From positions 11,665 through 75,664 of the forward strand of contig CAITYF010000197.1 of NCBI GenBank assembly GCA_903896545.1: DNA of 64,000 nucleotides, in the 5' to 3' direction. This DNA comes from an uncultured Myxococcales bacterium (GTDB lineage: Bacteria > Myxococcota_A > UBA9042). A model generated the notes under the pieces. That model was not told the DNA's origin. It saw nothing but the letters and a program-made list of their open reading frames with translations, and made no database searches. Positions within the stretch are counted from its first letter, which is position 1. Each line of letters opens with the position of its first letter. The position numbers and the translations under genes are program-made. Below are positions 3,410 through 62,296 of the stretch, piece by piece.

Positions 3410-3535
3410 GACGGTCTCCGTGGGAAGCGAGGGCGGAGATAGCGGGCGCGGCGCGGGCTGTCAATCTGCGCGCCACGGCTGGACGGGGACCGCGCGACAG
3501 GGCAAGGTTGGCGCGGGCGATTCTTGGAGATCTCG

Positions 3536-19952: not shown

Positions 19953-19980
19953 CGCACCAACGCGTATAGTACAAACACAC

Positions 19981-20082
19981 CACCCCAAATTGGTGCCACC
20001 GACCCTGCATTTTGGCCAATCGTGCCAATATCGCCCACCGCCATTGGCGCGTACCTTGTGTATCAGGAAGTCCGCTGGACGC
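19981..20082 (+). promoter_or_regulatory. Conserved ~100-nt 5' leader/promoter module of small gene 1 (candidate sigma-54-like element TGGCGCGTACCTTGTG)
   Basis: Near-identical blocks shared with 22234-22335: CACCCCAAATTGGTG (15/15) and TTGGCGCGTA(C/T)CTTGTGTATCAGGAAGTCCGCTGGACGC (39/40). GGAGG lies 6 nt before the ATG. Confidence 0.5.
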
Positions 20083-20134
20083 AGCCACCAACGGGCAGCA
20101 GAACCCACGCGGCAGAAACACTCGGAGGCACATC

Positions 20135-20404
20135 ATGGACACGCACTTCACCAGCCAACTCTTCCTCAGCATCCTCTTCTTCGCGCCGGGCATGGTCCTC
20201 TTCGCGGGCGTCGCGTTTGTCGGTGGTTTGATGCTGCTCGAAAAGGCCTTCGACCACACCGATACGGAACTCGGGTTGGTCGTGCCTCAAGGCGCTGTCG
20301 ACTTCGCCGCGACGGGCAATCCCGGTCCAGGTCGAATCGTCAACGCGCTGAAGACCAGCATGAACCAGACGGACAAAAAGCCGCAGCGCAAGGTCCATAA
20401 CTAG
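20135..20404 (+). CDS. Small protein P1 (89 aa), paralogue of P2; N-terminal hydrophobic segment and a basic C-terminal tail
   Basis: MDTHFTSQLFLSILFFAPGMVLFAGVAFVGGLMLLEK...NPGPGRIVNALK...KKPQRKVHN. It has its own RBS and a U-tract terminator. Confidence 0.7.
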   Translation: MDTHFTSQLFLSILFFAPGMVLFAGVAFVGGLMLLEKAFDHTDTELGLVVPQGAVDFAATGNPGPGRIVNALKTSMNQTDKKPQRKVHN

Positions 20405-22139: not shown

Positions 22140-22233
22140 AGTGCGTTGATCGTAAACACATTTGCACCCATCCGCCGCCTCGCCACGTCCCGCCATGGTG
22201 CATTCGCACCATACGCGTTTGATGCCATCCCCC

Positions 22234-22335
22234 CACCCCAAATTGGTGTCGAAATCCCTACAGATTGGCCATGACGACCACTATTGCCCTGCGGTCTTGG
22301 CGCGTATCTTGTGTATCAGGAAGTCCGCTGGACGC
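22234..22335 (+). promoter_or_regulatory. Conserved 5' leader/promoter module of small gene 2 (paralogue of 19981-20082)
   Basis: Same conserved blocks and the same ~53-nt spacing to the ATG, with a GGAGG RBS. Confidence 0.5.
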
Positions 22336-22388
22336 CGCCGGGAAGCGGCGGCAAGCCCAAGCGGCAAGAAACCCTCTGGAGGCTCATC

Positions 22389-22658
22389 ATGGAAACCAAC
22401 TACACCACTCAACTCGCTCTCAGCATCCTCTTCTTCGCCCCTGGCATCATCCTCTTCGCTGGCTTGGCCTTCGTCGGTGTGCTGATGATTCTGGAAAAGA
22501 CCGTCTTCCAGGCGCAGGCGACGAACGTGCTGACGAACGGTGGCTTGCACATCGAACTGCCCGCGAACGCGAACCCGGCGCCGGGTGCCATCGTCACGGC
22601 GCTCAAGGATGCGCAACAGCCGGTCGAGCAGAAGAAACAGCGCAAAGCGCATCAATAA
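22389..22658 (+). CDS. Small protein P2 (89 aa), paralogue of P1
   Basis: METNYTTQLALSILFFAPGIILFAGLAFVGVLMILEK...NPAPGAIVTALK...QKKQRKAHQ. Identical in length to P1, with conserved N- and C-terminal thirds and a divergent middle. Confidence 0.7.
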   Translation: METNYTTQLALSILFFAPGIILFAGLAFVGVLMILEKTVFQAQATNVLTNGGLHIELPANANPAPGAIVTALKDAQQPVEQKKQRKAHQ

Positions 22659-24953: not shown

Positions 24954-26480
24954 TTGACCAGAGCGTTGCCGCAACGCACTCTGGGCCTGCAATCGGGACG
25001 CTTCCGCCCCGCGCACGGGATCATGGCCGCTAGCACGCCCTTGCCGTTGCACGATTCACGCGACCGTTGGCCGTTGTGGCTGTTCTGCTTGTTGGCGGCA
25101 CCGCTTCTTGTCAACCGGTTGGGACCAGAATTTCTGGACGCGGACACGCTGCTTTCGTCGCTCATGTCGACGCAAAAGGTCACGCTTTTCTACTGGGGGC
25201 AGGAACGCTTGGCCAACGTGCTGCCGTTTATGCTCGCGCCCGTCACCGATCTGGCGCGGAATCAATGGCTGCAGATGACGGCGAACGCCGCGGCGTACCT
25301 GCTGCTTTTGGAAGCGCTGACGCACGTGGCGTGCCAACTGGACGACGCGCCGCCGCCCCGGCTGTACCGACACGTCCTGTTCGCGCTACTCGTGGCGCTG
25401 CCATTCCTCTTCCTTCGGCCTTTTGCGTTGTACCAATTCACGGTCGCGGCTCAGCCCTATTCGCTGTCCTTTCTGTGTCTGACGTGGGCTGCGCTGGCGT
25501 GGCGTCGCCGCGTCGAACAGCCGCTGTTCTGGGTCGCCTGCGGGCCCGCACTTGTCGTGGCCGTCGGGCTCAATCCCGCCGTCTTGCTTCTTGTCGTCGC
25601 GCTTGTCGCGTGGCAGCACCGGGCGGGAAAAGGCCGCGGTTGGATCGGGTTCTTCGTGCTCACGCTGAGCATTTTTGTTGTCTGGACGTTCTTGTCGGTG
25701 ACCTACCCGCTGCGCTCGCCGGCGTCATTCATGACGTTCGCGCCTCAAGGCGTTCCCGCCGCGCTGCGGGCGTCGGCGGGCGAGATCGCCCACGAAGCGC
25801 TGCGTCTGCGGGTCGTGGCGCTTGGCGGTATCGCGGTGACCGTCGCGTGGCCGCAATTGGGGCTGCAGCAGCGCCGGGCAACCCTTTCTGCAATAGCCTT
25901 AGGCTTTGTCTGGTCGTTGTTTTTCTTGACGAATCTCTGGGTTCAACGCAACTCAGCCGCCTTCCGCTACTTCATGCCGCTCATCTTCGCCCCCGTGGTT
26001 TGCACGGCTCTCGCGCTCGCCCACCTGTGCTTTCAGCGGCGCACCGTGTGGCGCGCGCGAGTCGTCCTTCTCGCCTCCACCCTCGTTTTCGCGGGCTTCT
26101 GCGTACGACCCTGGACGCCGCTCGCCTCGTACCACCTCTTCCGGCCCGCCCGCACACCGTTGGCGACGGCGCAACGCCATCAGATCCGCTACTTCGCGGG
26201 TGACTACTGGACCGTCTGGCCCGTAATTTTCCAACTTCGTCTGCAAGGCCATGACGCTCTCGGCGCGTTTTCGCGCGGGATCGCGATGCAAGCGGAGATC
26301 ATGGCTGCGCTTCACAAGGACCAAATCGTGCAGCCACGGACGCTGGCGCAGTGCATCAGTAAGCCGCTGCCGACCTGTCAGGAGCAGCTCGAGAAGGTGA
26401 CGCGGACGTCCTGGCGTCTGGCCGATGTGCCGCCGGAAGGTGAAAGCATCTTTCTGACCCCGGCCACGCCTCCGCTCTAA
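24954..26480 (+). CDS. Polytopic integral membrane protein (more than 10 predicted TM segments; possibly GT-C-like glycosyltransferase fold)
   Basis: Long hydrophobic stretches throughout. The exact start is uncertain (alternative M at ~25023). The stop codon TAA coincides with the end of the 144-bp repeat. Confidence 0.6.
   Translation: MTRALPQRTLGLQSGRFRPAHGIMAASTPLPLHDSRDRWPLWLFCLLAAPLLVNRLGPEFLDADTLLSSLMSTQKVTLFYWGQERLANVLPFMLAPVTDLARNQWLQMTANAAAYLLLLEALTHVACQLDDAPPPRLYRHVLFALLVALPFLFLRPFALYQFTVAAQPYSLSFLCLTWAALAWRRRVEQPLFWVACGPALVVAVGLNPAVLLLVVALVAWQHRAGKGRGWIGFFVLTLSIFVVWTFLSVTYPLRSPASFMTFAPQGVPAALRASAGEIAHEALRLRVVALGGIAVTVAWPQLGLQQRRATLSAIALGFVWSLFFLTNLWVQRNSAAFRYFMPLIFAPVVCTALALAHLCFQRRTVWRARVVLLASTLVFAGFCVRPWTPLASYHLFRPARTPLATAQRHQIRYFAGDYWTVWPVIFQLRLQGHDALGAFSRGIAMQAEIMAALHKDQIVQPRTLAQCISKPLPTCQEQLEKVTRTSWRLADVPPEGESIFLTPATPPL
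25891..25910. repeat. REP-like palindromic motif copy (CAATAGCCTTAGGCTTTGTC) inside the coding sequence
   Basis: 20-nt match to the motif family, lying within the membrane-protein ORF (it encodes SAIALGFV). Confidence 0.4.
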
Positions 26481-26620
26481 ACATGCCTGCCAACACTGGA
26501 GATCAAATGCTGAACACTTGGTGGGCATGTTTAGGCTGCTAGCAGGGGCGCCAAGCTCGCGTCCGTGCAGGTCGACTCGCGGCGACACAAGATATTGGGC
26601 TCCGAGTCAATGCAGGGATG
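26477..26620 (-). repeat. 144-bp MITE-like repeat, copy 1 (inverted relative to copies 2 and 3)
   Basis: 92-96% identical to 47826-47969 and 60959-61102. It contains a 9-bp stem AAACATGCC/GGCATGTTT, and its terminal CTAAACATGCC supplies the stop codon of the upstream gene. Confidence 0.8.
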
Positions 26621-28344: not shown

Positions 28345-29400
28345 CTACGCTTGTTGCGTAGCCAGACGCCGCATCGCCGCCAGCACGTCGTCCGCCTGCG
28401 GCACGCTATGCTGCTCGTAGCCCCAAGCCAGACCGACGCCCGGCACATCCAACCCCGCGAGCAACTCCGGCTTCACTTCCAGGCTGTAAAACGCCTCGTC
28501 CATCACCTTGCGGATCACGTGTTCGCCAAAATTGGTCACTTCAGTATCTTCATTGATAACGAGCAGACGCCCGGTCTTCTCCACCGAAGCCTTCACGGTC
28601 GGCAAGTCAAACGGGTAGATCGTCCGCAGATCAATCACTTCCACGTCGATGCCTTCCTTGGCCAGCGTCTCCGCCGCGTTCACGCTCAACGGCAACATGC
28701 GCCCGTAGGTCACCACCGTGAGCGCCGAGCCTTCACGCGCGATCTTCGCCTGACCGATTGGCACGCGATAATCCTCCACGGGCGGCCAGTTCGGCTGCCA
28801 GTCGGAGCGATCCCCCAAGGGCGCGTCGATCATCGTGTGCAAAGTGCGCTCATCGGCGGGCTCGCCTGGAATCAGCTCCGCACCCTTTTGCCGCATCAGC
28901 GCCTTCGGGGCTAAGAAGAGCACCGGATTTGGGTCCTCGATCGCCGAAAGCAAGAGACCGTACGCGTCCTTGGGATTGGACGGCATGACAATCTTCCAGC
29001 CCTGAATGTGGCTCGCCATGCTCTCAAACGAGTGCGAGTGGTACATGGAGCCGTGAATGCCGCTGCCAACCGGCGTCATCAGCACCAGCGGCACGTGGTA
29101 TTCGCCCGCGGACGACCACGTCACGTTGCCGCACAGCTTCAGCAAGTCGATGACGTTGTAGATGTAATCGCAGAACTGGATCTCCGCCACTGGCTTGCCG
29201 CCCGCGTACGCGATGCCCAACGCCGTGCCGATGATGCCACGCTCGTCCAGAGGCGTGTTCCACGCGGTCTTCAGACCCTGCGTCGCCGTGAAGACACCGC
29301 CCAAAGGTGCGCCGACGTCTTCACCAAAAACGTCTGTCACGCCCAGATGGGTCTCGCCGTAGTGCAGCGCCAGTCGAATCGCCTGTGCAAGATTTGCCAT
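28345..29400 (-). CDS. 2-oxo acid dehydrogenase E1 component beta subunit (BCKDH / pyruvate-dehydrogenase type)
   Basis: Transketolase-like pyrimidine-binding and C-terminal domains (EIQFCDYIYN, GSMYHSHSFES). Confidence 0.85.
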   Translation of the reverse strand: MANLAQAIRLALHYGETHLGVTDVFGEDVGAPLGGVFTATQGLKTAWNTPLDERGIIGTALGIAYAGGKPVAEIQFCDYIYNVIDLLKLCGNVTWSSAGEYHVPLVLMTPVGSGIHGSMYHSHSFESMASHIQGWKIVMPSNPKDAYGLLLSAIEDPNPVLFLAPKALMRQKGAELIPGEPADERTLHTMIDAPLGDRSDWQPNWPPVEDYRVPIGQAKIAREGSALTVVTYGRMLPLSVNAAETLAKEGIDVEVIDLRTIYPFDLPTVKASVEKTGRLLVINEDTEVTNFGEHVIRKVMDEAFYSLEVKPELLAGLDVPGVGLAWGYEQHSVPQADDVLAAMRRLATQQA

Positions 29401-32210: not shown

Positions 32211-33338
32211 ATGCTGCCGATTATTCAGCCGGTTTTTGGTCCCGAAGAAGAGGCCGCGGTGCTCGCTGTGCTGCGTTCCGGCTGGGTTGCGCAAGGTCCG
32301 CACGTCGCTGAGTTTGAGCGCAAAGTCGCGCTCCGTGCAGGCGCCAAGTACGCGGTTGCCGTGACGTCTGCGACGACGGGGCTCCATCTCGCGCTTGTCG
32401 CAGCGGGGATTGGGCCAGGGGACGAGGTCATTGTCCCGTCGCTTTCGTTCATTGCGTCGACCAATGCGGTGTGGATGGTCGGTGCGAATCCGGTTTTTGC
32501 AGACGTCGACGAGGAGTTGCCGATCCTGACTCCAGAAACGGTCGCAGCGGTGTGGACTCAAAAAACGCGGGCCGTGCTGGCCGTGCACCAACTCGGCATT
32601 CCGTGCGAGCGCGACGTGCTCCGCGCGATGTGCGAAGAACGCGGGGCGCGGCTGATCGAAGACGCCGCGTGCGCGTTGGGCTCACTGGCTGACGGTCGCC
32701 CGGTGACTGAAGGCGCCGATCTTGCGGTTTTTTCCTTTCACCCGCGCAAAGTGCTGACGATGGGCGAGGGCGGCGCGGTCACGACCGACAACGCGGATTT
32801 TGCCGAACGCCTGAAGCGCCTACGCAACCACGGCATGACGGTCGCAGCCGACGCGCGGCACGGCAATGCGGTCCGCGAAGGCTTTGCGGAACCGGCGTGG
32901 AACTATCGGCTGACGGACATTCAGGGCGCCATCGGCAGCGTGCAAATGGATCGCCTCGACGCGATCTTGGCTGAACGGCAGCGGATTTGGCAGGGCTATC
33001 GCGCGCGCCTGCACGCGGCCCTGCCGGAGATCCGCTTGCTGACGCCGCAGCCGCACGTGCAGTGGAACGTGCAGACCGGCTGCGTGCGTATCCCCGACGG
33101 GAAGCGCGATTCGGTGTTGAAGGCCTTGAACGACGGTGGGATTGGCGCACGACGCGGCATTCTCGCGGCGCATCTGGAGCCCGCATGGGCACACTGGCCG
33201 CGGACGCAATTGCCCAACTCAGAAGCCTGGGCGCACGACTCGCTCGCGCTGCCCGTGTTTCACGGAATGACGGGCGCGCAGCAAGATGAAGTCGTCCACG
33301 CGCTAGCCTTGGCGCTTGGTTATTTGGAAACGGTATAG
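32211..33338 (+). CDS. DegT/DnrJ/EryC1/StrS family PLP-dependent sugar aminotransferase
   Basis: LSFIASTNAV, the FSFHPRKVLTMGEGGAV Lys region, and general ArnB/DegT-like architecture. Confidence 0.8.
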   Translation: MLPIIQPVFGPEEEAAVLAVLRSGWVAQGPHVAEFERKVALRAGAKYAVAVTSATTGLHLALVAAGIGPGDEVIVPSLSFIASTNAVWMVGANPVFADVDEELPILTPETVAAVWTQKTRAVLAVHQLGIPCERDVLRAMCEERGARLIEDAACALGSLADGRPVTEGADLAVFSFHPRKVLTMGEGGAVTTDNADFAERLKRLRNHGMTVAADARHGNAVREGFAEPAWNYRLTDIQGAIGSVQMDRLDAILAERQRIWQGYRARLHAALPEIRLLTPQPHVQWNVQTGCVRIPDGKRDSVLKALNDGGIGARRGILAAHLEPAWAHWPRTQLPNSEAWAHDSLALPVFHGMTGAQQDEVVHALALALGYLETV

Positions 33339-33610
33339 ACCGCGCCGCCAATTGTCCCAAAGTACAAGCACTTGTCGTCGACCGCGAGCACGCGTTGGAA
33401 CGGCCAGCCGTCCAACTGGCCCATCTCGTTGTAGAGTTCGGTCTCCGTGGACGTCGTCAGGTTCCAACGCGCCAGCGGTCCATTCAGGATCTTGTAGTAC
33501 GCGTTGTCGCCGTCCATCAGCAGGTTGCGGGGGCTGCCCGACGTCGTCTTCACGTGCGTCAGGTTTTGGCCGCTCGTGTCGACGCGCCACAAGCCCGCGT
33601 CCGTATTGGT
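33290..33610. repeat. Left copy of the ~320-bp segmental duplication (partner at 36139-36466)
   Basis: ~97% identical by eye to 36139-36466. It spans the aminotransferase 3' end and the 3' end of the Cys-repeat protein gene. Confidence 0.85.
33320..33610 (-). pseudogene. 3'-terminal fragment of the Cys-repeat / beta-propeller protein gene; the intact copy is at 36175-38583
   Basis: Encodes ...TSGQNLTHVKTTSGSPRNLLMDGDNAYYKILNGPLARWNL...GGAVYTVSK, identical to the C-terminus of the 802-aa protein, and lacks an N-terminal part. Confidence 0.7.
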
Positions 33611-33834
33611 GAACGGTTGGCCGGCGTGAACGGCTGGGGCACGCAGGCAAGTGGTCGCGGCGCGAGGTGGTGCTGCGGCCGCAACCTCCAAGGCGCAAGA
33701 AGGAACGCGCGAACGATGAAACCGCCTGCGCGCACGCACGGCGAGAGGCGAAGCCGGCCGAGAGCTTCAACCGCTTCGACCGTGGCTTGACCCGCCGGTC
33801 GTACTGGCCCATTGTCGACGTCGGAGATTCCGCG

Positions 33835-35070
33835 ATGCTCGGGCGATTATGGATGTTGAGCCTCGTCTTGTGCGCCTCCTGCGGCACCGCGATTCCGATT
33901 GGTGCGACGGATGCGTCCGCCGCGAACGCGACTGACGACGTCGACCTCGGCCTCGCCGACGCAGGGCCAGACGTCGCATTCACCCCTGACATCCCCGCTC
34001 CCGACGCGGTCAGCCCCGACGCGTGCACGAGCAACTGCGCCTGCGGCAACGGCGTCTGCGATGCAGAAGAAACCGTCACTTTGTGCCCCGCCGACTGCGC
34101 GTTTCTCGCCGCGCATACGGCCGGGTCTTGTAGCCAACCCGGCAGTTGGAACGGCTGTCCGTGGGGCTACATCTGCGCGGGGCGGAGCAAGGCTGGCGGC
34201 GGCAACGTCTGTGTGGCGGATTTCGATACGTGGGGCGTCTTGCCTGACGCGCGGGCTGCCAGCGAGTACGTCGACTTTGGCTGGTCTGTGACGGACAGCC
34301 TGACAGGTCTCGAATGGGCCAAAGAGGCGCTGCCGCCGATGCCGTGGGCGGTGGCGCTGAGCGCGTGCACGACACAGACGATCGGCGGTCACACCGACTG
34401 GCGATTGCCAAGCAACGCAGAGTTGCGGACGTTGCTGGACTACGCCAAGGAGTTTCCAGCGGCTACTGCACCGGGGTTGAGCTGGCCCCCGAACTGCATC
34501 ACCGGCGTGACCGACTACTCCACATGGTGCGGCGACCCGTACTGGAGCGACGTCCCCGGTCCGACCTGGAAAAGCGCTTGGGAGCTCGATTTTGCCGACG
34601 CGAGCAACTTGCCCAGCGATCCGACGGCGACGTGGCACGTGCGCTGCGTGCGCGGGGCCGCCTCCGGAGCCAAGTCCCAAGGCGTCGGGGCGCGTTTTGC
34701 CGCAACCGATCAAGGCCAGGTCGTTCTGGATAGGGTCACCGGGTTGCGCTGGCAGATCGGGGAATCGGTCGGCTGGATAGCCCACGCGGCGGCAGAGACT
34801 TGGTGTGCCACGAACGCCGCCGCAGCGCCGGGGGAGGGCTGGCGACTCCCGTCGATACGCGAGCTGACCTCCATCGTCGACCGCCGCCTCACGCAGCCGG
34901 CGATCGACCCGATCTTTGGCACGACGCAGTATTTTCCGCACTGGAGTACAAGTCTGGTTGCCAGGTCTTACGGCGACGGCACGCCACTGCCTTGTTGGTT
35001 GATGGTCGAATTCGCAGTCGGCTTTTCAGATCTTGCCTGCGGAAGCAGCGTCGCCCGCTGCGTCCGCTAA
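33835..35070 (+). CDS. DUF1566 (Lcl C-terminal domain) lipoprotein with a Cys-rich N-terminal region
   Basis: Signal/lipobox LVLCASCGT. Two DUF1566-like modules with TDWRLPSNAELRTLL and GWRLPSIRELTSIV motifs. Confidence 0.7.
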   Translation: MLGRLWMLSLVLCASCGTAIPIGATDASAANATDDVDLGLADAGPDVAFTPDIPAPDAVSPDACTSNCACGNGVCDAEETVTLCPADCAFLAAHTAGSCSQPGSWNGCPWGYICAGRSKAGGGNVCVADFDTWGVLPDARAASEYVDFGWSVTDSLTGLEWAKEALPPMPWAVALSACTTQTIGGHTDWRLPSNAELRTLLDYAKEFPAATAPGLSWPPNCITGVTDYSTWCGDPYWSDVPGPTWKSAWELDFADASNLPSDPTATWHVRCVRGAASGAKSQGVGARFAATDQGQVVLDRVTGLRWQIGESVGWIAHAAAETWCATNAAAAPGEGWRLPSIRELTSIVDRRLTQPAIDPIFGTTQYFPHWSTSLVARSYGDGTPLPCWLMVEFAVGFSDLACGSSVARCVR

Positions 35071-35405
35071 CCCTCGACCGAGTCGCGGGGCTCGCTGAAT
35101 TCCGGGCGACGGGCGAGCGCTGACGTCGCAGCGGATCTCACTTCAGGCCGCGCTTGAACGCGGGATCAAGCGAGAAGCTCAGGCGTGTAGCAGAAGCAAA
35201 CCACATCTCCGCCCCGCTCGGCCGCTCAGTCATCGCCCCCGCCCGGACCTTCCACGCGCAAACCGACCACTTTGGCCAGTCTGACGCCGCCAGATCCGCG
35301 CATTAAGCGCTCGTTTGTCCCTGATCTTGCGTGAATTTACGCACTTTGGACGCACCGGTCCGCCCGCAGCGCCTTTGCGCCACGTGTATGCGCCCGGTCG
35401 TATGC

Positions 35406-35790
35406 CTATGCCGCGGCCAGTTCCCAATCCGCAAACGACAGGTCAATGTCATCGCCCAGATCCGGATCAAAGTCATCCAAATATTCAGGCGGATCAATCA
35501 GTTCGGGTGGTCCCATGGGCTGTACGATGTCGTTCGGCTCTTGCTGCAGCTTGAGGTGCCGTAGGAACCGCGCCGCCTCCGGGCCCGCCGGGATCACCGC
35601 CAGCAGCTTGAGCCGGTGGTCGCACGCGCGGGTCAGAATATCTATGCAAAACGACAGCTTGAGAGTCTTGCTCCACGTCGGTTTCGTTGCCTTCTCGATC
35701 AGCCCCAGCCGGTCAGTCAGGTCCAGCGGCTGCGGCCTTTCCTCGTTCCGCCTCCCGGGCGCGTGCTCGCCTGCCAGCACCACGCGCGCG
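35406..35790 (-). CDS. Hypothetical small protein with an acidic C-terminus (boundaries uncertain)
   Basis: The C-terminal ~120 aa look coding (…IDILTRACDHRLKLLAVIPAG…ELIDPPEYLDDFDPDLGDDIDLSFADWELAAA). The upstream part of the long ORF is Arg/Pro-rich and derived from the duplicated segment, so the start is unclear. Confidence 0.3.
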
Positions 35791-36138
35791 CAGTGTCTGG
35801 CTACCGCGCCGCCCTCGATCCGCCTCCAGGTATTCGGCGGCGGGCGGCTTGCTGGTTCGGGGCGAACGCGCCGTGGTAGGTGATACCGGGCTTGGCTGGC
35901 TTGGTGGAGGTGCGCATCCTCCACGGTGTTCGTGAGTTTCAGATTTTTTGCCGCGGCGTGCCGCGCACCTTTCTGGCCAGTTGCCGCCCGCTCCGCCTCC
36001 GCCCGGACTCGCCTACCGGATGTCGGCCCAGAAGCTGGACGCGGACGGCCAAGCTGGCGAACTGCCTTCTGCGCAGGACGATTGGCGCACTTCATGTTGC
36101 TTTCGGACAAATCGCTCTCGACTCCATCGTGGTCGTTG

Positions 36139-36466
36139 GGTGGAAGTCGTCCACGCGCTAGCCTTGGCGCTTGGTTACTTGGAAACGGTATAGACCGCGC
36201 CGCCAATTGTCCCAAAGTACAGGCACTTGTCGTCGACCGCGAGCACGCGTTGGAACGGCCAGCCGTCCAACTGGCCCATCTCGTTGTAGAGCTCGGTCTC
36301 CGTGGACGTCGTCAGGTTCCAACGCGCCAGCGGTCCATTCAGGATCTTGTAGTACGCGTTGTCGCCGTCCATCAGCAGGTTGCGGGGGCTGCCCGACGTC
36401 GTCTTCACGTGCGTCAGGTTCTGGCCACTCGTGTCGATCCGCCACAAGCCCGCGTCCGTGTTGGTG
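36139..36466. repeat. Right copy of the ~320-bp segmental duplication
   Basis: Carries a remnant of the aminotransferase 3' end (encoding VVHALALALGYLETV) plus the genuine 3' end of the Cys-repeat protein gene. Confidence 0.85.
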
Positions 36467-38583
36467 AACGACGCGACCCAATAGACGTAGTTGTTGACGT
36501 AAGAAACGCCGTATCGGTGTGAACCGCCGCCTTTGGTCGTGTCGCCCAGCAGCGTGCTCACGACGCCGCCTGCCGAGACCTTCTCCAGCGCTTGTGGCGT
36601 GTATTGGCTTGACGTGTAGATCGCGGTGCCGTCCGTTGCCAGACCGAGATTCGCCTCGGTCAGCGGCAGCGACGTCAGCACATTATTCTGCGCCAGGTCG
36701 TAAAAGCCGATGCCCGCTTTGTTCACGCCAGCGGCGTTGGATGCGTACCACGCGACGAGATCGCCGTACACAATCGCCTCCGTCAGCGACTTGAGGCCGA
36801 AGGCCAGCTGAACGACGTCGACCGCGCAGCCTTGCCCGTCGCAGTCGATCACGTACCCGTCCAGCGCGCCGCTGCCAAACGCGCCCGCGTCGCCGATGAG
36901 GATGCGCGTACCGTGCGGCACCAAGGAAATCGGCGCGATCAGTTGATCGACGATCGTCTTCATGTTCGCGTTGGCCGTGCCGCAGCCCGCCAGCTTCGGG
37001 CAGGAGACGACCTTGCCCCACTTGTTGCCGCCTGGGTCGCGCACGCCAAAGATGACGCGGTCGTCCATGACGGTGACGGCCGAGACCGAGCCGATCGCGT
37101 CGGGGTAATCCAACAGCAGTCGCGGCGTCGCGTTGCACACCGGCTTGGGGCAGCCGTCCACGCCGACGCACTGACCCTGCGCGTTGCACGCGTCCGCGGT
37201 GGTGCAGGCGACGCCGTCATCACACGATGTGCCGAACGTCACGATTTCATTCTTGCACAGACCCGACTTCGGGTTGCACGAATCCGTCGTGCACGGGTTC
37301 TTGTCGTCGCAGTCTTTCAACACGCCAGAGGCGCAGAGACCTGCCACGCACGTGTCCACCGCGGTGCATGCGTCGTTGTCCGTACACGTCGTGCCGTTGC
37401 TGACGTCGGTGTTGATGCAGCCATCGGCCATCGAGCACGTGTCCGTCGTGCACGCGTTGCCGTCGCCGCACGCCGCGTCGCTGCCGACGTGGCTGCACTG
37501 GCCGGTCGCGTCGCAGGTATCGGCGGTGCAATCGAGCTTGTCGTCGCACGTCGCCTTGGCTGGCGTGCAGGAGCCCAAGTCGCAGAATTCGTTTTGGGTG
37601 CAAGGGTCGCCGTCGTCGCACAGTCCAATCTTGTTTACGTTGCCGCAGCCGCTGTCCAGGCTGCACGCGTCGGTGGTGCACTGGTTGCCGTCCTCGCACG
37701 CCGCGTCACTGGCAACGTGGCTGCATTGCCCGGCGGCGTCGCAACTGTCGGTCGTGCACGCCAACTTGTCGTCGCACTTCTGCTTGGCGGGTACGCACGT
37801 CGTGCCGTCGCAGTAGTCACCTTGCGTGCAGCTATCGCCGTCGTCGCACAGGCCGACCATCGGGGCGTTGCTGCAGCCACCGTTGAGCGTGCAGGTGTCG
37901 GTCGTGCACTGGTTGCCGTCGTCGCACGCCGCGTTCACCGCGGTGTGGTCGCACTTGCCGGCGACATTGCATTCGTCCGTGGTGCACGGCAGCCCGTCGT
38001 CGCACTTCGCCGTGGGTCCCACGCACGTGGCGTTGTCGCATGCGTCGTTGATCGTGCACGCGTTGCCGTCATCACAGGGTGTACCGCCCGCCGCCGTTGC
38101 CTTGCCGCACGCGCCGTTTTCGCAGGTATTCCACTGGCACGCCGTGTCGGTCCCGCCGCAATCCGCGGGCGTGATGCACTCGGGCGCGGCCACGTCCGGG
38201 CCCGTGTCTTCTTGCGCGACATCCGGCGGCACGTCCGCTTCCGTATCGGGTCCCGCATCCGGCGCAACGTCGGCCGCAACGTCCGGCTCGACATCTGGCG
38301 CCACGTCAGGTGCGACGTCCGTCGCTGCATCGGGTGCGACGTCCGCATCTTCCTTGGCCGCAACGTCCGCGTCCTGACTGACGACGTCCGAAGGGGGGAA
38401 CTCCGCGCTGGCCACGTCGGTCGTTCCGCTCGCGTCGGTGCCTTCTTGGGCGTCGGCGTCTTCCGTTGCATCGTCCAGCGTCGTGTACTGCGCGAGCGCC
38501 GCGATGTCATTGCCACACGATGAAAGTCCCGTTGCGAGCACAGCGCTCAAGCTCAAGACACACAAAGATTGCGTTTTCCACAT
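36175..38583 (-). CDS. Secreted lipoprotein with D(V)APD acidic repeats, tandem myxobacteria-type Cys-rich repeats (CDDGNxCTxDxC) and a C-terminal beta-propeller-like domain
   Basis: Lipobox LSSCGND. Repeats DVAPDAATDVAPDVAPDVEPDVAADVAPD. At least 8 tandem ~38-aa Cys modules (CDDGNQCTTDTCTLNGGCSN...). The plus-strand ORFs covering it are antisense artefacts. Confidence 0.8.
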   Translation of the reverse strand: MWKTQSLCVLSLSAVLATGLSSCGNDIAALAQYTTLDDATEDADAQEGTDASGTTDVASAEFPPSDVVSQDADVAAKEDADVAPDAATDVAPDVAPDVEPDVAADVAPDAGPDTEADVPPDVAQEDTGPDVAAPECITPADCGGTDTACQWNTCENGACGKATAAGGTPCDDGNACTINDACDNATCVGPTAKCDDGLPCTTDECNVAGKCDHTAVNAACDDGNQCTTDTCTLNGGCSNAPMVGLCDDGDSCTQGDYCDGTTCVPAKQKCDDKLACTTDSCDAAGQCSHVASDAACEDGNQCTTDACSLDSGCGNVNKIGLCDDGDPCTQNEFCDLGSCTPAKATCDDKLDCTADTCDATGQCSHVGSDAACGDGNACTTDTCSMADGCINTDVSNGTTCTDNDACTAVDTCVAGLCASGVLKDCDDKNPCTTDSCNPKSGLCKNEIVTFGTSCDDGVACTTADACNAQGQCVGVDGCPKPVCNATPRLLLDYPDAIGSVSAVTVMDDRVIFGVRDPGGNKWGKVVSCPKLAGCGTANANMKTIVDQLIAPISLVPHGTRILIGDAGAFGSGALDGYVIDCDGQGCAVDVVQLAFGLKSLTEAIVYGDLVAWYASNAAGVNKAGIGFYDLAQNNVLTSLPLTEANLGLATDGTAIYTSSQYTPQALEKVSAGGVVSTLLGDTTKGGGSHRYGVSYVNNYVYWVASFTNTDAGLWRIDTSGQNLTHVKTTSGSPRNLLMDGDNAYYKILNGPLARWNLTTSTETELYNEMGQLDGWPFQRVLAVDDKCLYFGTIGGAVYTVSK

Positions 38584-38738
38584 GGCGCCTCCCCCAACGC
38601 TTTGATGCGGCCAGTTCCCTCACTCGCGAACAGGAACGAGTGTGAGCCGGAGGAAAAGCGCCGTCAAGCGGCAGGAATGCGCGCGGCGCGTCCGATCAGC
38701 GGACAGAATGGGCACGCGTGTTGCGCTGGGTTTCTGCG

Positions 38739-40037
38739 TCAAAATCCGCAGGAACAAGAGCCGACGGTCGCTGTCGGTGAATCAGGCAAGCAAAGGCAGC
38801 CCGACGGTGCGTTGCAGAACGCCGCGACGTTGTCGCACTTCAAACTCTTGTCGTAACAGAGACCGGTCGCGGTCGCGTCGCACGTGAGGTCAAAGGCGGT
38901 GCCGCCGAAGTTCTTGCAGTCGCTGTCCTTGGTGCAAGGTACGCCAGGATCGACTGTGGGCGTTCCGCTGCTGCAGGAAAACGTCTTGGGATTGCACGTG
39001 CCTTTCTTCTGCGCCGCGCAGGTCGCGTCACTTGTGCACTCGACGCACGACCAATTGCCGTTGACTTGGAAGCAATCGGGGTAGGGCGCCACGCACACTT
39101 GGCAGTCGTAGGGAATGGGGATGCACTTGTGCACGCTCACGTCGCACATTTTGCCGGCCTTGCAGTCGGTGTTGACCACGCATTCGCCGCAGGTGCCGTC
39201 GCTCAGTTTCAACGGTGCCTCGGGCGGACAGCCGATGGTGTTCACGCACGTGTGCGTCGTCGTGTCGCAGTGACCGCCGGGGCAGTTGCTGTCCAGGAGG
39301 CATGCGACGCAGCTGCCCAAAATGCACTTGTCGGGGCACTTGGCGCAGCCCGCGTCGGGTTTGCAGTTGCCGTAGCAGCACGCCAAGCCGGTGAACCCGC
39401 AGACGTTGCCGCCGTCGGTCTTTTGGCAGATCGCGCCGCCGGGACACGAGCCGTCCGGGCCGCATTCGGGCATGCAAATCGTTTGCGTGGAGAAGTCGGG
39501 ACTGGCGAGCGCGGCGCACTTCAAACCGGGGCCGCATTCCGTGGCGGTTTTGCACGGGGTGCAGGGCGCTTTGCCGGTGACGCACTTGCCGGTTACGGGC
39601 TGACACACCTGGTCGCTGGGGCAGCCGGTCGCGAGGCAACCCTCGCAGGAGTAGTTGGGCGGAAGGCAATGCGGCGCGGCGTCCTTCACGTCGGCCTTGT
39701 CACACGTGAACTTTGCGGAACAATCCGCCGCCGTCGTGCACTTTGGCGCGCAGAAGCTGCCGTTCAAAAGTGCGATGCAGTCCAGGTTCTCCGCGCAATC
39801 CGCCGTGTTCTCACACGATTGGCATGCGTTGCTGAGCGCCTTGGGCACATCGGCTACCGCGGCGTCCGTGGTGGCATCGCTGGGCGTGTCCAGCTCAAGC
39901 GCTGTGTCGACGGCGATCGCGGAATCGCTGGGAACGTCATCCGAGCCGAGGCCGGTGATTTGTGCATCGTCACCGCAGCTGGCGAGCAACAGCCCGCCGA
40001 TGCAAAAAAGCCAACAAGAAACAGCGCGCGTGGACAT
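38739..40037 (-). CDS. Cysteine-rich secreted lipoprotein (EGF/knottin-like tandem modules)
   Basis: Lipobox LLLASCGDD. ~60 Cys arranged in repeated CxxxxC...C patterns (CAPKCTTAADCSAKFTC, CTPCKTATECGPGLKC). Confidence 0.65.
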   Translation of the reverse strand: MSTRAVSCWLFCIGGLLLASCGDDAQITGLGSDDVPSDSAIAVDTALELDTPSDATTDAAVADVPKALSNACQSCENTADCAENLDCIALLNGSFCAPKCTTAADCSAKFTCDKADVKDAAPHCLPPNYSCEGCLATGCPSDQVCQPVTGKCVTGKAPCTPCKTATECGPGLKCAALASPDFSTQTICMPECGPDGSCPGGAICQKTDGGNVCGFTGLACCYGNCKPDAGCAKCPDKCILGSCVACLLDSNCPGGHCDTTTHTCVNTIGCPPEAPLKLSDGTCGECVVNTDCKAGKMCDVSVHKCIPIPYDCQVCVAPYPDCFQVNGNWSCVECTSDATCAAQKKGTCNPKTFSCSSGTPTVDPGVPCTKDSDCKNFGGTAFDLTCDATATGLCYDKSLKCDNVAAFCNAPSGCLCLPDSPTATVGSCSCGF

Positions 40038-40153
40038 GCGACTCCTGACGACCTCTCCCCGGCTGTGAGTGTAGCGTTTTGCGTGCGCGATAGGGAGCGT
40101 CGCCCCTCGTCGTCGGCTGACGATTGACCTACACTGAACGCCGGAGGTTCGTG

Positions 40154-40498
40154 ATGCGCCGATTCATCGTACCGTGTGTTCTTGCCGCTTCTGGACTGTC
40201 AGGCTGCCAACAGGAAGCCGACGTCCTCGCCACGCAATTCGACCAATCCTGCACGACCGCAAACGACTGCGTACGCGTCGAGGAACTCACGCATTCCGGC
40301 AGCATGTGCGTTTACCACTGCCCCGACGCGGCCATCAACGTCAAAGCCAAGGCCGCGTTTGACGCTGCCAAGACCGCAGCGACGTCGCACTGCACGAGTT
40401 CCGCCATGCCCGGTTGCGTCGCCGGCGGTCCCTTGGCGTGCATAAGCGGGCGTTGCAGCACGGCGCCGGCCGATCAGGACACGTCCAACGCCGACTGA
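40154..40498 (+). CDS. Small Cys-containing lipoprotein (hypothetical)
   Basis: Lipobox LAASGLSGCQQ. 114 aa with 8 Cys. Confidence 0.5.
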   Translation: MRRFIVPCVLAASGLSGCQQEADVLATQFDQSCTTANDCVRVEELTHSGSMCVYHCPDAAINVKAKAAFDAAKTAATSHCTSSAMPGCVAGGPLACISGRCSTAPADQDTSNAD

Positions 40499-40639
40499 AA
40501 GTGCGTGGGCAGGGTGAAGCGTGCGCCCACTGGGGGCGGCGTCTCCACCCTCAGGAGGCGGAGTGGCCGCCCATCAGGGGACGATCGCCTACCCCGGTGG
40601 GGCGGATCGGGTGCCTATTGGGGGTAGTCGGTCCGCCTG

Positions 40640-47813: not shown

Positions 47814-47825
47814 GGGCAAGCTACA

Positions 47826-47969
47826 CATCCCTGCATTGACTCGGAGCCAAATATCTTGTGTCGCCGCGAGTCGGCCCGCAGGGACGCGAGCTTGGCGACC
47901 CACCTAGCAGCCCAAACATGCCCACCCAGCGTTCAGCATTTGATCTCCAGTCCTGGCAGGCATGTTTAG
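47826..47969 (+). repeat. 144-bp MITE-like repeat, copy 2
   Basis: CATCCCTGCATTGACTCGGAGCC...GGCAGGCATGTTTAG. Its terminal TTTAG supplies the TAA stop (minus strand) of the gene at 47966-48970. Confidence 0.8.
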
Positions 47970-60111: not shown

Positions 60112-60957
60112 ATGACTACACCCCGCAAAATCGTCGTAACCGGCGCTTCGACAGGCTTTGGGCGCTGCATCGCAGAAGCCGCGCTCGCCCAGGGGTGGTC
60201 CGTGCTGGGCACCGTTCGCAAGGACACCGACGCCGCCGACTTGCGCGCCAAGGGCATTGCCGTCGCGCAGTTTGACCTCGCGGTGCCCGAATCGATCGGC
60301 CCTGGCTGCGCGCAAATTCTCGCGTGGTGCGAGGGCAATCTGGACGCGCTGGTCAACAACGCCGGCTCGACTTGGCCCGGTCCCATCGAGCTCGTGACGA
60401 TGGCTGATCTGCGTGTGCAGTTTGAAGTGAACACTTTTGGCCACATCGACGTGACGCAGCGCCTGCTTCCGGCGATCCGCGCAGGGCATGGCCATGTGCT
60501 CTTCATCTCGTCGGACTCGACCACGTTGACGCCGCCGATCGTCGGCACCTACGCGGCGTCCAAGCGCGCCATCGAGGCGCTCGCCGAGTCGCTGGCTCAG
60601 GAAACGGCGGGGCAGGGCATTCACGTGTCGATCGTCGCGCCCGGACCGTATCAGACCGCGATTTGGGGGACCTCGATTCCCCGCGGCGAGGCGTACCTGG
60701 AAACCGCCGATCCGCGGCTGCAGCTTTACCGCACGCTGGCCGAACAGTTGGGCAGAGCGTCCACCAACCGCCCGCTGGGCGATCCGATGGACCTCGCGCA
60801 GGTCGTGCTGAAGCAGTTGAACGACCCGAATCCACCGCTGCGCACGGTGGCGCCGTTTCAGTCGCGGCTGGTCAGCTGGGTGCGTGCGCTCATCGGCCCG
60901 CGGCGCTTCCACAAGCTGCTGCGTTTTGTCATCGCCAAGCAAGGTGCAGCGAGCTAG
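60112..60957 (+). CDS. SDR family oxidoreductase
   Basis: AAGGAG RBS 6 nt upstream. VVTGASTGFGRCIA, NNAG, YAASKRAIE (YxxxK). Confidence 0.8.
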   Translation: MTTPRKIVVTGASTGFGRCIAEAALAQGWSVLGTVRKDTDAADLRAKGIAVAQFDLAVPESIGPGCAQILAWCEGNLDALVNNAGSTWPGPIELVTMADLRVQFEVNTFGHIDVTQRLLPAIRAGHGHVLFISSDSTTLTPPIVGTYAASKRAIEALAESLAQETAGQGIHVSIVAPGPYQTAIWGTSIPRGEAYLETADPRLQLYRTLAEQLGRASTNRPLGDPMDLAQVVLKQLNDPNPPLRTVAPFQSRLVSWVRALIGPRRFHKLLRFVIAKQGAAS

Positions 60958-60958
60958 A

Positions 60959-61102
60959 CATCCCTGCGTTGACTCGGAGCCAAATATCTTGTGTCGCCGC
61001 GAGTCGGCCCGCAGGGACGCGAGCTTGGCGACCCAGCTAGCAGCCTAAACATGCCCACCCGGCGTCCAGCATTTGATCTCCAGTCTTGGCAGGCATGTTT
61101 AG
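60959..61102 (+). repeat. 144-bp MITE-like repeat, copy 3
   Basis: Starts 2 nt after the SDR TAG stop. Its terminal TTTAG provides the TAA stop (minus strand) of 61099-61572. Confidence 0.8.
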
Positions 61103-61572
61103 TTCGCCTCTGCACGGCAGCGGTTGCGCAAGTCGCTGTTGTTGATCGACTCGCAGGCGCTTTTGTTGTGCCCCGCGACGCCGCGGCAGTAGTTGCGCTT
61201 GTCGCTGTCGCCGATCGATTCGCACGGGCTCTTGTCGTGACGCGAAACGGCGCGGCAGTGGTTGCGCGCGTCGCTGTCCGAGATCGACTCGCAGTTGCCT
61301 GAGCTGCTGGAGCCGCCCGCGACGCCGCGGCACTGGTTGCGCAGGTTGCTGTCGCCAATCGACTCACAGTGTGACTTCTCGCCGCTCGCCTCGGCACGAC
61401 AGTAGTTGCGTTTGTCGCTGTTGCTGATCGATTCGCAAGGGCTCTTGTCGTGCTTGGCCACAGCGCGGCAATGGTTGCGCGCGTCGCTGTCAGAGATCGA
61501 CTCGCAATTGCTGGCGTTCGCCGCCGCGTTCACGGTCCACAAAGTCATCGCCACCACAGTCCACTTCCACAT
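61099..61572 (-). CDS. Secreted protein made of about eight tandem ~16-aa CESI(S/G)DSDxRNxCR repeats
   Basis: Signal peptide MWKWTVVAMTLWTVNAAANA, then NCESISDSDARNHCRAV / SPCESISNSDKRNYCRAE / SHCESIGDSNLRNQCRGV and so on, with two Cys per repeat. Confidence 0.6.
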   Translation of the reverse strand: MWKWTVVAMTLWTVNAAANASNCESISDSDARNHCRAVAKHDKSPCESISNSDKRNYCRAEASGEKSHCESIGDSNLRNQCRGVAGGSSSSGNCESISDSDARNHCRAVSRHDKSPCESIGDSDKRNYCRGVAGHNKSACESINNSDLRNRCRAEAN

Positions 61573-61609
61573 GCTGCCCTCCATTGCCCCGTTTCCGGCC
61601 CGGCGCACG

Positions 61610-62293
61610 TTACGCCACGGCGCGCACGACTTCCAGCCACGCTTGCAGCCACAGTCTGCCTGCACCGCAGCCATCATTCCAGCCCATTTCCGGATGAAAT
61701 TGGCTCGCGAGGATGGGCCGCCGACGGTGCGCGATCGCCTCCACCGGAGTCACGGCGCTGTGTCCCAAGGTGACAAACGCGCTTGGCGTCGCTGCGACTT
61801 GTTCGACGTGGCTCTCAAAGCACCGCCCCCCGGATTCTGGCCAACGCAGCAGCGCGCGCCGGGCGGCGTCGGGCAGCCACGAGGGCAACGCGCTTACGTC
61901 CAGCGCCACGGGCAGCGGACCGCGCACCTTACGCAGTCCGTCGTAACTCGCGCCGAGATCTTCGCCAAACGTCGTTTCCAGCTTGCCGCCCCAAGCAAGC
62001 GCCAGCGCCTGCATGCCACCGCAAACGCCCAGCACCGGACCTGGAAACACTTCAACGAGCGCCCGCAACCATGGGAGAAACGCGCGGTCGTAGGCGGCAA
62101 ACGGTGTGCCTTGGGGACCGAGCACCAGCGCGGTCGTCCGGGCGAGCAAGGCGGGATCGCGGCGAATTTCCGCGAAATGCACAAGCGTCACTTCAGCTTT
62201 GGGCAACAGAATCTCAAGCGCTTCGGCAATGCGCTCGCAACCACCCCGTTCGCCGGCTTGCAAGTTCAGATTGCAGATCAAGATCTTGACCAT
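61610..62293 (-). CDS. Class I glutamine amidotransferase-like protein
   Basis: GVCGGMQAL (nucleophile Cys elbow) and SQFHPE (His-Glu of the triad). Confidence 0.7.
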   Translation of the reverse strand: MVKILICNLNLQAGERGGCERIAEALEILLPKAEVTLVHFAEIRRDPALLARTTALVLGPQGTPFAAYDRAFLPWLRALVEVFPGPVLGVCGGMQALALAWGGKLETTFGEDLGASYDGLRKVRGPLPVALDVSALPSWLPDAARRALLRWPESGGRCFESHVEQVAATPSAFVTLGHSAVTPVEAIAHRRRPILASQFHPEMGWNDGCGAGRLWLQAWLEVVRAVA

Positions 62294-62296
62294 CGC

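Follow-up and report, generated by a model that had tools for sequence, protein, structure and literature searches.

The window analysed here is a 64-kb stretch of DNA in which two host genes flank an insert. On the left lies an intact gene for a DegT/DnrJ/EryC1-family sugar aminotransferase (DegT; positions 32211–33338, forward strand; PF01041, E=2.7e-99). Its start, MLPIIQ, is conserved among relatives, and a 375-aa gene was called at this position in other assemblies. On the right lies an intact gene for a Cys-repeat (Dicty_CTDC) lipoprotein of 802 aa (36175–38583, reverse strand; PF00526, E=6.9e-24); in a different assembly, a gene of this length was likewise called, on a 42-kb contig. This protein has a non-repeat C-terminal domain, and its sole homologue found was P0001 (85% identity). 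Each live gene faces a dead piece of the other. A 3' fragment of the Cys-repeat gene (33320–33615, reverse strand; 98 codons and the stop) overlaps the end of DegT and appears as a 90-aa ORF in gene-caller output. A dead DegT tail, EVVHALALALGYLETV followed by a stop codon (36143–36193, forward strand; 16 codons and the stop), lies severed from its gene at the end of the live Cys-repeat gene.

These gene ends belong to a duplicated segment. The left copy (33288–33615) contains the live DegT tail, namely its last 16 codons and stop, and the dead Cys-repeat gene end; the right copy (36143–36470) contains the dead DegT tail and the live Cys-repeat gene end. A pairwise alignment, counted position by position, showed that the copies are direct repeats of 328 bp without gaps and with eight mismatches (97.6% identity). 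A repeat finder alone returned 33288–33587 versus 36143–36442 at 98%. The 320 matches in 328 positions are far beyond chance, and no second repeat pair in the 64-kb window equals this one in length and similarity combined. The preliminary description reported direct duplications of ~97% around a 2.5-kb cassette, with intact and dead gene ends on each side. We confirmed the duplications and the gene content of both sides; the repeats had been correctly located, but each of their ends was 2–5 nt off.

The insert (33616–36142) is 2,527 bp in length and has a GC content of 65.7%; its GC and codon-position GC are host-like. It carries a gene for a DUF1566/Lcl_C-domain protein of 411 aa (33835–35070, forward strand; PF07603, E=3.2e-34, in two stretches). 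The PF07603 score of 118.1 bits, against a gathering cut-off of 34.9, and a Cys-rich region bear out the earlier assignment of this cargo. The protein also has an N-terminal signal peptide with a lipobox-like Cys and is predicted to be secreted or surface-located. It was identical on 7 contigs (P0004), and the next homologues were at most 50% identical.

The other feature of the insert, previously taken for a small acidic-tail ORF, proved to be the decayed and frameshifted 3' end of a transposase gene of the ISCR/IS91 family (HUH Y2, rolling-circle; 35406–35899, reverse strand; 59% identity to P0003, E=1e-37). Its in-frame part (35406–35801) includes an ORF at 35406–35783 (P0002, 125 aa in other assemblies). 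The upstream piece (35855–35899) and the YHGAFAPN motif lie in a different frame, and the zinc-ribbon cysteines are gone. An intact HUH-Y2 transposase gene is absent; approximately the last 150 codons are left. The frameshift-corrected remnant matched NCBIfam ISCR_clade_Ia with E=0.0038 (positions 395–481 of 509). P0003 matched IS91-family/ISCR1 transposases (E=1e-7), and a longer remnant at a second locus, L013, matched ISCR_clade_Ia with E=6e-28 and Pfam Y2_Tnp with 35.9 bits. By these scores, the ISCR/IS91 assignment of the window remnant appears strong only through its relatives P0003 and L013.

In the orientation of the transposase, the order is right repeat, transposase remnant, DUF1566 gene, and left repeat. 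Between the remnant and the right repeat lie 243 bases (35900–36142) for which no homology was detected, either with the transposase family or with other retrieved sequences. Among the decayed family members compared, neither oriIS nor terIS was recognisable, and no hairpin was convincing. The regions downstream of the window and L013 remnants were dissimilar (score 21 versus 19.9 ± 2.8 for shuffles). A GAAC lies 1 nt from the junction 33615/33616, a proximity shared by 8% of random positions. No integrase, tyrosine or serine recombinase, or other intact transposase gene was found in the insert and flanking ORFs scanned (~24–49 kb), and the whole window contained no tRNA gene, tmRNA gene, or Rfam family. 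Their absence calls for a route driven by homology.

The empty site, which the preliminary description proposed to look for in relatives, is present in a related metagenome contig, L010. In this contig, DegT and the Cys-repeat gene stand tail to tail, the 328 bp occur once, and the insert is absent. After reverse complementation, its positions 1–1230 correspond to window positions 32386–33615 and its positions 903–2400 to 36143–37640. The tail-to-tail overlap of the two live genes in the window, 19 nt, is kept in L010. This contig comes from a different species (~80% nucleotide identity), and no empty site of the same species was found. Gene content in the DegT–gyrB interval varies among five related genomes, which marks it as a hypervariable, recombination-prone locus for surface proteins. 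At L013, a remnant of the same transposase family lies between direct repeats of the 3' segment of an upstream surface-protein gene.

The differences between the two copies indicate where the incoming DNA originated. In the Cys-repeat frame, seven of the eight are synonymous and the remaining one exchanges V and I, whereas the synonymous fraction expected under neutral change is 0.24–0.39 (P=0.0003–0.007). Thus, the copies appear to have diverged inside working genes, as two alleles; they look like alleles of a working gene rather than a gene and its decayed duplicate. Their divergence had been read as a sign that the event was not very recent, but it is a poor guide to age: two pre-existing alleles fit it better than the decay of a dead copy does. 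Allele-like copies point to a related strain as the source of the incoming DNA, which would have recombined via the shared segment. When polarised with an outgroup, the left copy holds the derived state at seven sites and the right copy at one, and, of the seven derived changes in the left copy, six would be silent in the old frame (P=0.001–0.016). Position 33367, one of the eight, is polymorphic between assemblies; therefore, at least one change is younger than the event, or gene conversion has acted. The longest block free of copy-specific differences spans 128 nt.

We consider, with moderate confidence, that a Campbell-type single crossover of a small circle best explains this locus. The direct repeats, the reciprocal arrangement of intact and dead gene ends, and the single-copy empty site in L010 match the footprint that such a crossover would leave. 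In the ancestor, the DegT and Cys-repeat lipoprotein genes would have stood tail to tail, as they do in the related genome today. DNA from a related strain would then have arrived, in which an allelic 328-bp junction segment was joined to the 2.5-kb cargo, comprising the DUF1566/Lcl_C surface-protein gene and an ISCR/IS91-type transposase gene now reduced to its decayed 3' end. One reciprocal homologous crossover within the shared segment would have inserted the entire molecule. Each chromosomal gene would have kept an intact end, with dead end-fragments facing the insert and two copies of the segment in direct orientation. The transposase remnant suggests a possible route for making the circle: read-through ("one-ended") rolling-circle transposition may have taken in flanking DNA, and homologous recombination may have rescued the product. 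We infer that a circular molecule came in, that an ISCR-like element had made it, and that host recombination did the joining.

The distribution of derived states bears on this model. If the crossover fell in the identical 128-bp block, the derived states would be split 4:4 between the donor and recipient lineages. When a mid-repeat crossover is not assumed, the 7:1 split looks more like change in a dead copy. The circle model also carries a cost, because the donor must already hold both novel junctions, which are left unexplained.

The duplicated junction and reciprocal gene ends of the earlier Campbell-type reading stand, while the circularity is our deduction. A linear-fragment route gives an identical product, which counts against the Campbell reading. 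Linear donor DNA from a strain whose allele of the locus differed (DegT, the repeat segment, and the insert) may have replaced part of the recipient's locus by homology-facilitated illegitimate recombination: it would have crossed over homologously within DegT or the repeat, and the far end of its insert would have been joined illegitimately at 36142/36143. The apparent duplication would then be the donor's copy of the segment set beside that of the recipient. This is the less likely course of events, but it deserves serious consideration. It accounts for the synonymous, allele-like differences, and it makes the whole left copy donor DNA, which explains why nearly all derived states are found there. 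Since the locus is hypervariable among relatives, divergent alleles exist. Moreover, assembly breaks at ~33000–33059 (inside DegT) and 37404 and a variant at 32996 hint at co-existing haplotypes bounded to the left of the repeat. However, no donor-type allele was found. The illegitimate join must also fall 48 nt inside DegT, immediately left of the recipient's segment; such a join duplicates the segment and deletes nothing, which is unusual for this type of recombination. Microhomology at 36142/36143 was not evident from the window sequence alone.

In-situ copying of the 328 bp, in the manner of a very long target duplication, is improbable. The insert would have entered at a break with staggered or resected ends, or template switching during replication would have brought it in, and the two copies, identical at birth, would have diverged afterwards. 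Seven of the eight changes are derived in the dead copy and one difference is a polymorphism within the population, both in favour of this scenario. L013 has two more long flanking duplications beside ISCR-like remnants, one of at least 111 nt (98%) and one of 213 nt (88%), which could hint at a recurrent duplicating mechanism. However, a dead copy should gain mostly non-synonymous changes, contrary to the excess of synonymous changes described above for the left copy. To our knowledge, bacterial transposases make target duplications of ~2–14 bp. We rejected a target-site duplication made by a transposase, given the length of 328 bp, the seven synonymous differences of eight, and the lack of element ends and of an active transposase that could have produced it. 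IS91-family elements, moreover, make no target duplication (PMC13181058, PMC3575428).

It is very improbable that a small genomic island integrated here site-specifically and, like prophages that enter protein-coding genes and restore them, brought a replacement 3' end for its target gene. The left copy does restore DegT, and the dead tail lies at the far end, which is the pattern of elements that integrate at 3' ends. However, the integrase or recombinase gene and the tRNA gene that such an island might show were absent from the regions scanned, and the duplicated segment extends 280 nt beyond DegT into the neighbouring gene. This extension indicates that the incoming DNA came from a genome with the same gene junction rather than from an element equipped with an attachment site of its own.

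An assembly artefact, in which contig ends were collapsed or duplicated or a free circle was wrongly joined to an empty chromosome, is hardly credible, since the occupied gene order recurs in contigs of at least seven assembly accessions (ERZ1426838, ERZ1426856, ERZ1426582, ERZ1426679, ERZ27313264, ERZ18638034, and Logan ERR4195033). The contig names suggest three pipelines (megahit-style k141, BUCK21 scaffolds, and Logan). One 42-kb contig covers the entire structure, and the two alignable contigs that span both copies are 99.95–99.97% identical to the window. The longest difference-free stretch is shorter than k=141, a value implied by the megahit-style "k141" names; therefore, copy-specific variants at most 128 nt apart tie the left and right copies to their respective flanks, which excludes a chimera of circle and empty site for those contigs. 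Short-read metagenome contigs frequently end in or near the repeat, and the Logan contig L017 has a length of exactly one period plus 30 nt. However, this length is predicted by a graph break at k=31 within the identical 128-nt block. The artefact, which the preliminary description named as one possible refutation, thus fails.

We tentatively speculate that, in Myxococcales-like bacteria of fresh water, surface-protein genes may be captured and shuffled by ISCR/IS91-like rolling-circle elements along the route proposed for ISCR1 in clinical integrons. Read-through replication would produce a circle that includes the 3' end of the gene next door, homologous recombination would rescue it, and "complex-integron-like" scars would be left. 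The window and L013 would then be two independent examples, and the DegT–gyrB hotspot may have been partly built in this manner. The 328-bp repeats also mean that the cassette could be excised or amplified through homologous recombination.

The locus may be compared with several known systems. The e14 element and phage 21 integrate at the 3' end of icd and supply a replacement end, using an integrase and a short core site. As in those elements, one copy here restores the target gene and a dead tail lies at the other end of the insert. In contrast to them, there is no integrase, and the duplicate reaches 280 nt into the neighbouring convergent gene. Homology-facilitated illegitimate recombination has been described for Acinetobacter and Streptococcus pneumoniae during the uptake of foreign DNA. 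It similarly brings foreign DNA beside a conserved gene through one homologous anchor and one illegitimate join, and it can give the observed product. However, recipient sequence is usually deleted in that process and is duplicated here, and no donor allele is known.

Campbell integration shares with this locus an insert between direct repeats of one contiguous chromosomal segment, reciprocal intact and truncated gene ends, a single-copy empty site, and no need for a dedicated recombinase. A few hundred bp of homology is a routine size for suicide-plasmid insertion in Myxococcus genetics. Unlike the typical case, the event here occurred naturally, in an uncultured genome; its circle is putative, replicon and plasmid genes are absent from the insert, and the copies are apparently different alleles. 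IS91, whose transposase belongs to the same family as the remnant, undergoes one-ended transposition with termination failure in 1–14% of events, and single- and double-stranded circular intermediates have been documented (PMC13181058). One-ended transposition of this type could yield a circle with flanking host DNA. However, elements of the IS91 family insert at GTTC/CTTG targets without duplicating them, whereas joining here would have proceeded via a homologous segment of 328 bp, and neither end of the element could be identified.

For complex class 1 integrons with ISCR1, aberrant rolling-circle replication has been proposed to give a circle, which is rescued by homologous recombination in a shared segment (PMC6834847, PMC3575428). 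The present case differs in its host, a freshwater Myxococcales-like bacterium, and in its cargo, a surface-protein gene instead of a resistance gene. The duplicated segment is the junction of two chromosomal genes and not the 3'-CS, and the transposase is a frameshifted 3' remnant with no recognised oriIS. Nevertheless, the order in those integrons (3'-CS, ISCR1, captured gene, 3'-CS) is matched here by duplicate, ISCR-family transposase, captured non-cassette gene, and duplicate, a likeness of layout and not of mechanism. The event is of a known kind, and its setting is an uncultured freshwater Myxococcales-like genome.

The repeat finder reported a direct pair of 300 nt with 98% identity (33288-33587 and 36143-36442). 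Pairwise alignment with the flanks gave gap-free identity between 33288-33615 and 36143-36470, which stopped abruptly at both ends, and a position-by-position comparison revealed 8 mismatches in 328 bp (97.6% identity). These differences lie at repeat sites 36, 80, 150, 279, 285, 296, 297, and 318, a spacing that leaves a 128-nt block free of differences. The duplication reported in the preliminary description was confirmed by this alignment; however, its ends were 2-5 nt off. No second repeat pair of equal length and similarity was found within the 64-kb window.

The 328-bp segment is exactly the tail-to-tail junction of a DegT-family aminotransferase gene (32211-33338, plus strand; PF01041, E=3e-99) and a Cys-repeat gene, which overlap by 19 nt. 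A dead 3′ fragment of the Cys-repeat gene (33320-33615, minus strand, 98 codons) is present on the left, and a dead DegT tail of 16 codons (36143-36193) on the right, where it adjoins the intact 802-aa Cys-repeat (Dicty_CTDC) lipoprotein gene (36175-38583, minus strand). An exact-protein look-up returned no record for DegT or the 802-aa protein. Further to the right are the genes for a 432-aa Cys-rich lipoprotein and a small lipoprotein, followed by gyrB. The insert (33616-36142) carries the gene for a 411-aa DUF1566/Lcl_C protein with a signal peptide and a Cys-rich N-terminal region (33835-35070, plus strand; PF07603, 118 bits), as well as a small minus-strand ORF with an acidic tail that ends at 35406. 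No further copies of the insert were detected in the window or in the loci fetched for comparison. The Cys-rich N-terminal region of the cargo gene has inverted matches of 76-79% (34011-34060 vs 37638-38063) in the Cys-repeat array of its opposite-strand neighbor. This neighbor includes a tandem array encoding Cys-repeat modules (37417-37934; 228-nt period, 2.3 copies, 74% matches), and the Dicty_CTDC and Lcl_C domains are fused in single proteins of other genomes (P0008-P0010).

The empty site that the preliminary description had proposed to look for was found in a related species. Searching the protein collection with the C-terminal domain of the Cys-repeat protein yielded one homologue, P0001 (85% identity), whose gene is on a 2.4-kb JGI contig, L010. 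The reverse complement of L010 aligns at 1-1230 with 32386-33615 of the window (gap-free, 81%) and at 903-2400 with 36143-37640 (80%). The two alignments share 903-1230, which corresponds to the 328-bp segment; this segment is present once, and DegT and the Cys-repeat gene are convergent with the same 19-nt overlap. The single segment in L010 indicates that the insert and the second copy were added in the window lineage. The alternative for L010 is loss through recombination between repeats in its own lineage, namely, the reverse of the same reaction.

Assembly artefact, which would have undone the integration reading, was ruled out. The same gene order was present on contigs from at least 7 assembly accessions, apparently representing 3 pipelines by contig name (megahit-style k141, BUCK21 scaffolds, and Logan). 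One 42-kb contig covers gyrB through the thiolase gene, and two contigs alignable across both repeat copies are 99.95-99.97% identical to the window. The megahit-style contig names imply k=141, and copy-specific variants are at most 128 nt apart. Each copy can therefore be phased with its own flanks, showing that the integrated form truly exists as a molecule. Contig L017 (Logan) has the length of one repeat period plus 30 nt, with both ends inside the 128-nt identical block, exactly as a graph break at k=31 predicts. Several assemblies break at the same two places flanking the cassette, at approximately 33000-33059 in DegT and at 37404 in the Cys-repeat array, and a variant is present at 32996, inside DegT. 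The shared breaks and this variant suggest that an alternative 33000-37404 haplotype co-exists in those samples. The 328-bp repeats predict the loss or amplification of the cassette through homologous recombination, which may also be a cause of the fragmentation of metagenome assemblies in this region.

In the Cys-repeat frame, 7 of the 8 differences between the copies are synonymous and one exchanges V and I. Enumeration of all single-base changes, with transition and GC-to-AT biases varied over a range, gave an expected synonymous fraction of 0.24-0.39 and a probability of 0.0003-0.007 for at least 7 of 8. This pattern is unlike the neutral decay of a dead fragment, and the copies resemble a pair of alleles whose divergence took place when each belonged to a working gene. 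Such allele-like copies argue that one copy came with the insert from a related strain, and argue against duplication on the spot. Divergence had previously been read as a sign that the event is not very recent; the excess of synonymous changes fits two alleles better. A role for the dead fragment as a silent donor in antigenic variation was ruled out because only one residue, a conservative change, separates it from the live copy.

The DegT-gyrB interval is a hypervariable surface-lipoprotein locus. Its content differs among lake MAGs of uncultured Myxococcales with a DegT 86-88% identical to that of the window. The interval in L002 has zero genes, while L001 and L007 have three (a homologue of the 432-aa lipoprotein, another Cys-rich protein, and a small lipoprotein). 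L006 has at least two, the gene for a 487-aa homologue and, after it, an acyltransferase-like gene, and the window (33339-40639) has five genes plus remnants. The Cys-repeat gene and the cassette are absent from all four relatives, in which the conserved DegT sequence stops approximately 33 nt into the repeat. Where present, the Cys-repeat gene rewrote the last codons of DegT through the 19-nt tail-to-tail overlap (…GYLETV before the stop codon vs …GQTR, …GHTR, or …LS). Regarding an empty site or donor allele in the same species, the genome scan yielded only the relatives with 86-88% DegT identity, all with other alleles of the locus. Metagenome scans gave no match with a 34-nt conserved repeat pattern and a best match of 62% with DegT, and the contigs retrieved through the flanking thiolase and the 432-aa lipoprotein either had the occupied arrangement or were broken.

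The small ORF as it stands matched no Pfam or NCBIfam family (Pfam even at E<=10) and, by tblastn, no plasmid sequence. It has only two homologues: P0002, which is its own near-identical copy, and P0003, with 59% identity (E=1e-37). P0003 aligns with the C-terminal 110 residues of IS91-family/ISCR1 transposases on thousands of plasmids (best E 1e-7), corresponding to residues 387-480 of 500 in one annotated transposase; the IS91/ISCR identity of the small ORF is reached only through this 59% homologue. The contig encoding P0003, L013, holds a longer remnant (NCBIfam ISCR_clade_Ia, E=6e-28; Pfam Y2_Tnp, 35.9 bits against a cut-off of 20.9). In the window, the conserved family motif (Y/F)HG(V/A)FAPN is present at 35855-35899 in a frame differing from that of the small ORF, and the frameshift-corrected translation matched ISCR_clade_Ia directly (E=0.0038). 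Judging from these matches, the insert holds approximately 150 codons from the 3′ end of an ISCR/IS91-type rolling-circle transposase gene, and what had been taken for a small acidic-tail ORF belongs to this remnant. It carries a frameshift, and its zinc-ribbon cysteines are gone. To the right, bases 35900-36142 of the insert showed no homology to the transposase family or to the fetched sequences.

L013 has the same layout, around a remnant of the same family. A Cys-rich EGF-like surface-protein gene (3-2471) is followed by an ISCR-like pseudogene in the same orientation, and a second copy of the surface-protein gene 3′ segment starts 129 nt past the pseudogene stop codon. The two copies (2111-2221 and 4542-4652) are 98% identical over at least 111 nt, the match reaching the contig end. 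A PIN-domain cassette (3058-3474) is located inside the pseudogene between 213-nt direct repeats of pseudogene sequence (2585-2797 and 3652-3863, 88%). We consider ISCR-type capture possible, albeit doubtful; the weight we give it comes chiefly from the recurrence of this layout at L013, which makes two loci, too few for statistics, the far end of the second lying beyond its contig.

The geometry in the window is that of one reciprocal homologous crossover with a circle. A chromosomal segment would have recombined with a circular molecule carrying the same segment plus the cargo. This reading, offered in the preliminary description, was largely right; the identity assigned to the small ORF and the use of divergence as a measure of age were not. 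No integrase or other intact transposase gene is present among the ORFs annotated at approximately 24-49 kb, and the whole window lacks tRNA genes and Rfam families. The insert is not foreign in composition (GC 65.7% vs 63.7% for the window; cargo GC3 0.78, within the host range). The same product would result from a linear donor fragment that crossed over homologously in DegT and was joined illegitimately at 36142|36143. Polarization with L010 as the outgroup places 7 derived states in the left copy and 1 in the right, a pattern for which a linear fragment accounts directly, and the co-existing haplotypes suggested by the assembly breaks and the 32996 variant, with a left boundary inside DegT, slightly favor it. 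If the crossover with a circle fell in the 128-nt block, we infer that donor and recipient would each have 4 of the derived states, as allelic divergence predicts. Position 33367, one of the 8 differences, is A in the window and G, the right-copy state, in another contig (L011). Because of this polymorphism, at least one of the differences must post-date the event or have been converted since; either the dead copy mutated recently or the two copies underwent gene conversion.

Returning to the circle, we hypothesize that the ISCR-like element may have taken part in making it. We place its role no higher because the ends of the element were not found, the regions downstream of the window and L013 remnants are dissimilar and lack a conserved oriIS, and the GAAC adjoining junction 33615|33616 is not significant as a GTTC/CTTG target motif. 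Terminators, promoters, and hairpins at the insert ends did not exceed expectation.

Several other features were noted in the window. An intergenic element of approximately 145 nt occurs three times with 92-95% identity (26477-26620, minus strand; 47816-47969 and 60949-61102, plus strand). Its consensus folds into two long hairpins (-50 kcal/mol) and matches no Rfam family; the element could represent either a MITE/REP-like repeat or a small RNA family, and contig L024 ends beside one copy. A tandem array at 61115-61506 (69/144-nt period, 5.6 copies) covers the start of the 61406-62350 ORF together with the intergenic DNA that follows the 60007-60957 gene. The direct repeat pair 19960-20256 and 22213-22510 (71-78%) represents two small paralogous genes (approximately 125-130 aa) 2.25 kb apart. 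In the E1-beta (transketolase-like) gene, 28657-28780 has 5 differences from L024 in 124 nt, the rest of 6.5 kb being 99.9% identical; this cluster looks like a short inter-strain recombination tract.

The locus offers a clean natural case of a cassette joining a hypervariable surface-protein locus without a dedicated integrase, combining an occupied site, the empty site of a relative, and allele-like copies that point to inter-strain exchange. The ISCR-type remnant and the second locus of the same layout hint that the gene-capture route invoked for antibiotic-resistance regions in clinical bacteria may also act on ordinary chromosomal genes in environmental bacteria.

The event does not qualify as an integrase-mediated island or a transposase-made target duplication, nor, having no intact transposase gene or recognizable ends, as an active ISCR/IS91 element. 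In the IS91 family, one-ended transposition (1-14%) and circular intermediates are documented (PMC13181058). The accepted proposal for complex class 1 integrons invokes aberrant rolling-circle replication, generating a circle with the captured gene, a truncated 3′-CS, and ISCR1; this circle is then rescued through homologous recombination in the 3′-CS (PMC6834847, PMC3575428). In the transposase orientation, the order in the window is duplicate, transposase remnant, cargo gene, and duplicate, the same as in these ISCR1-linked integrons. The event works in the same manner as Campbell-type integration; events of this kind are known, this being a new instance whose host and locus are unusual, and current understanding stands.
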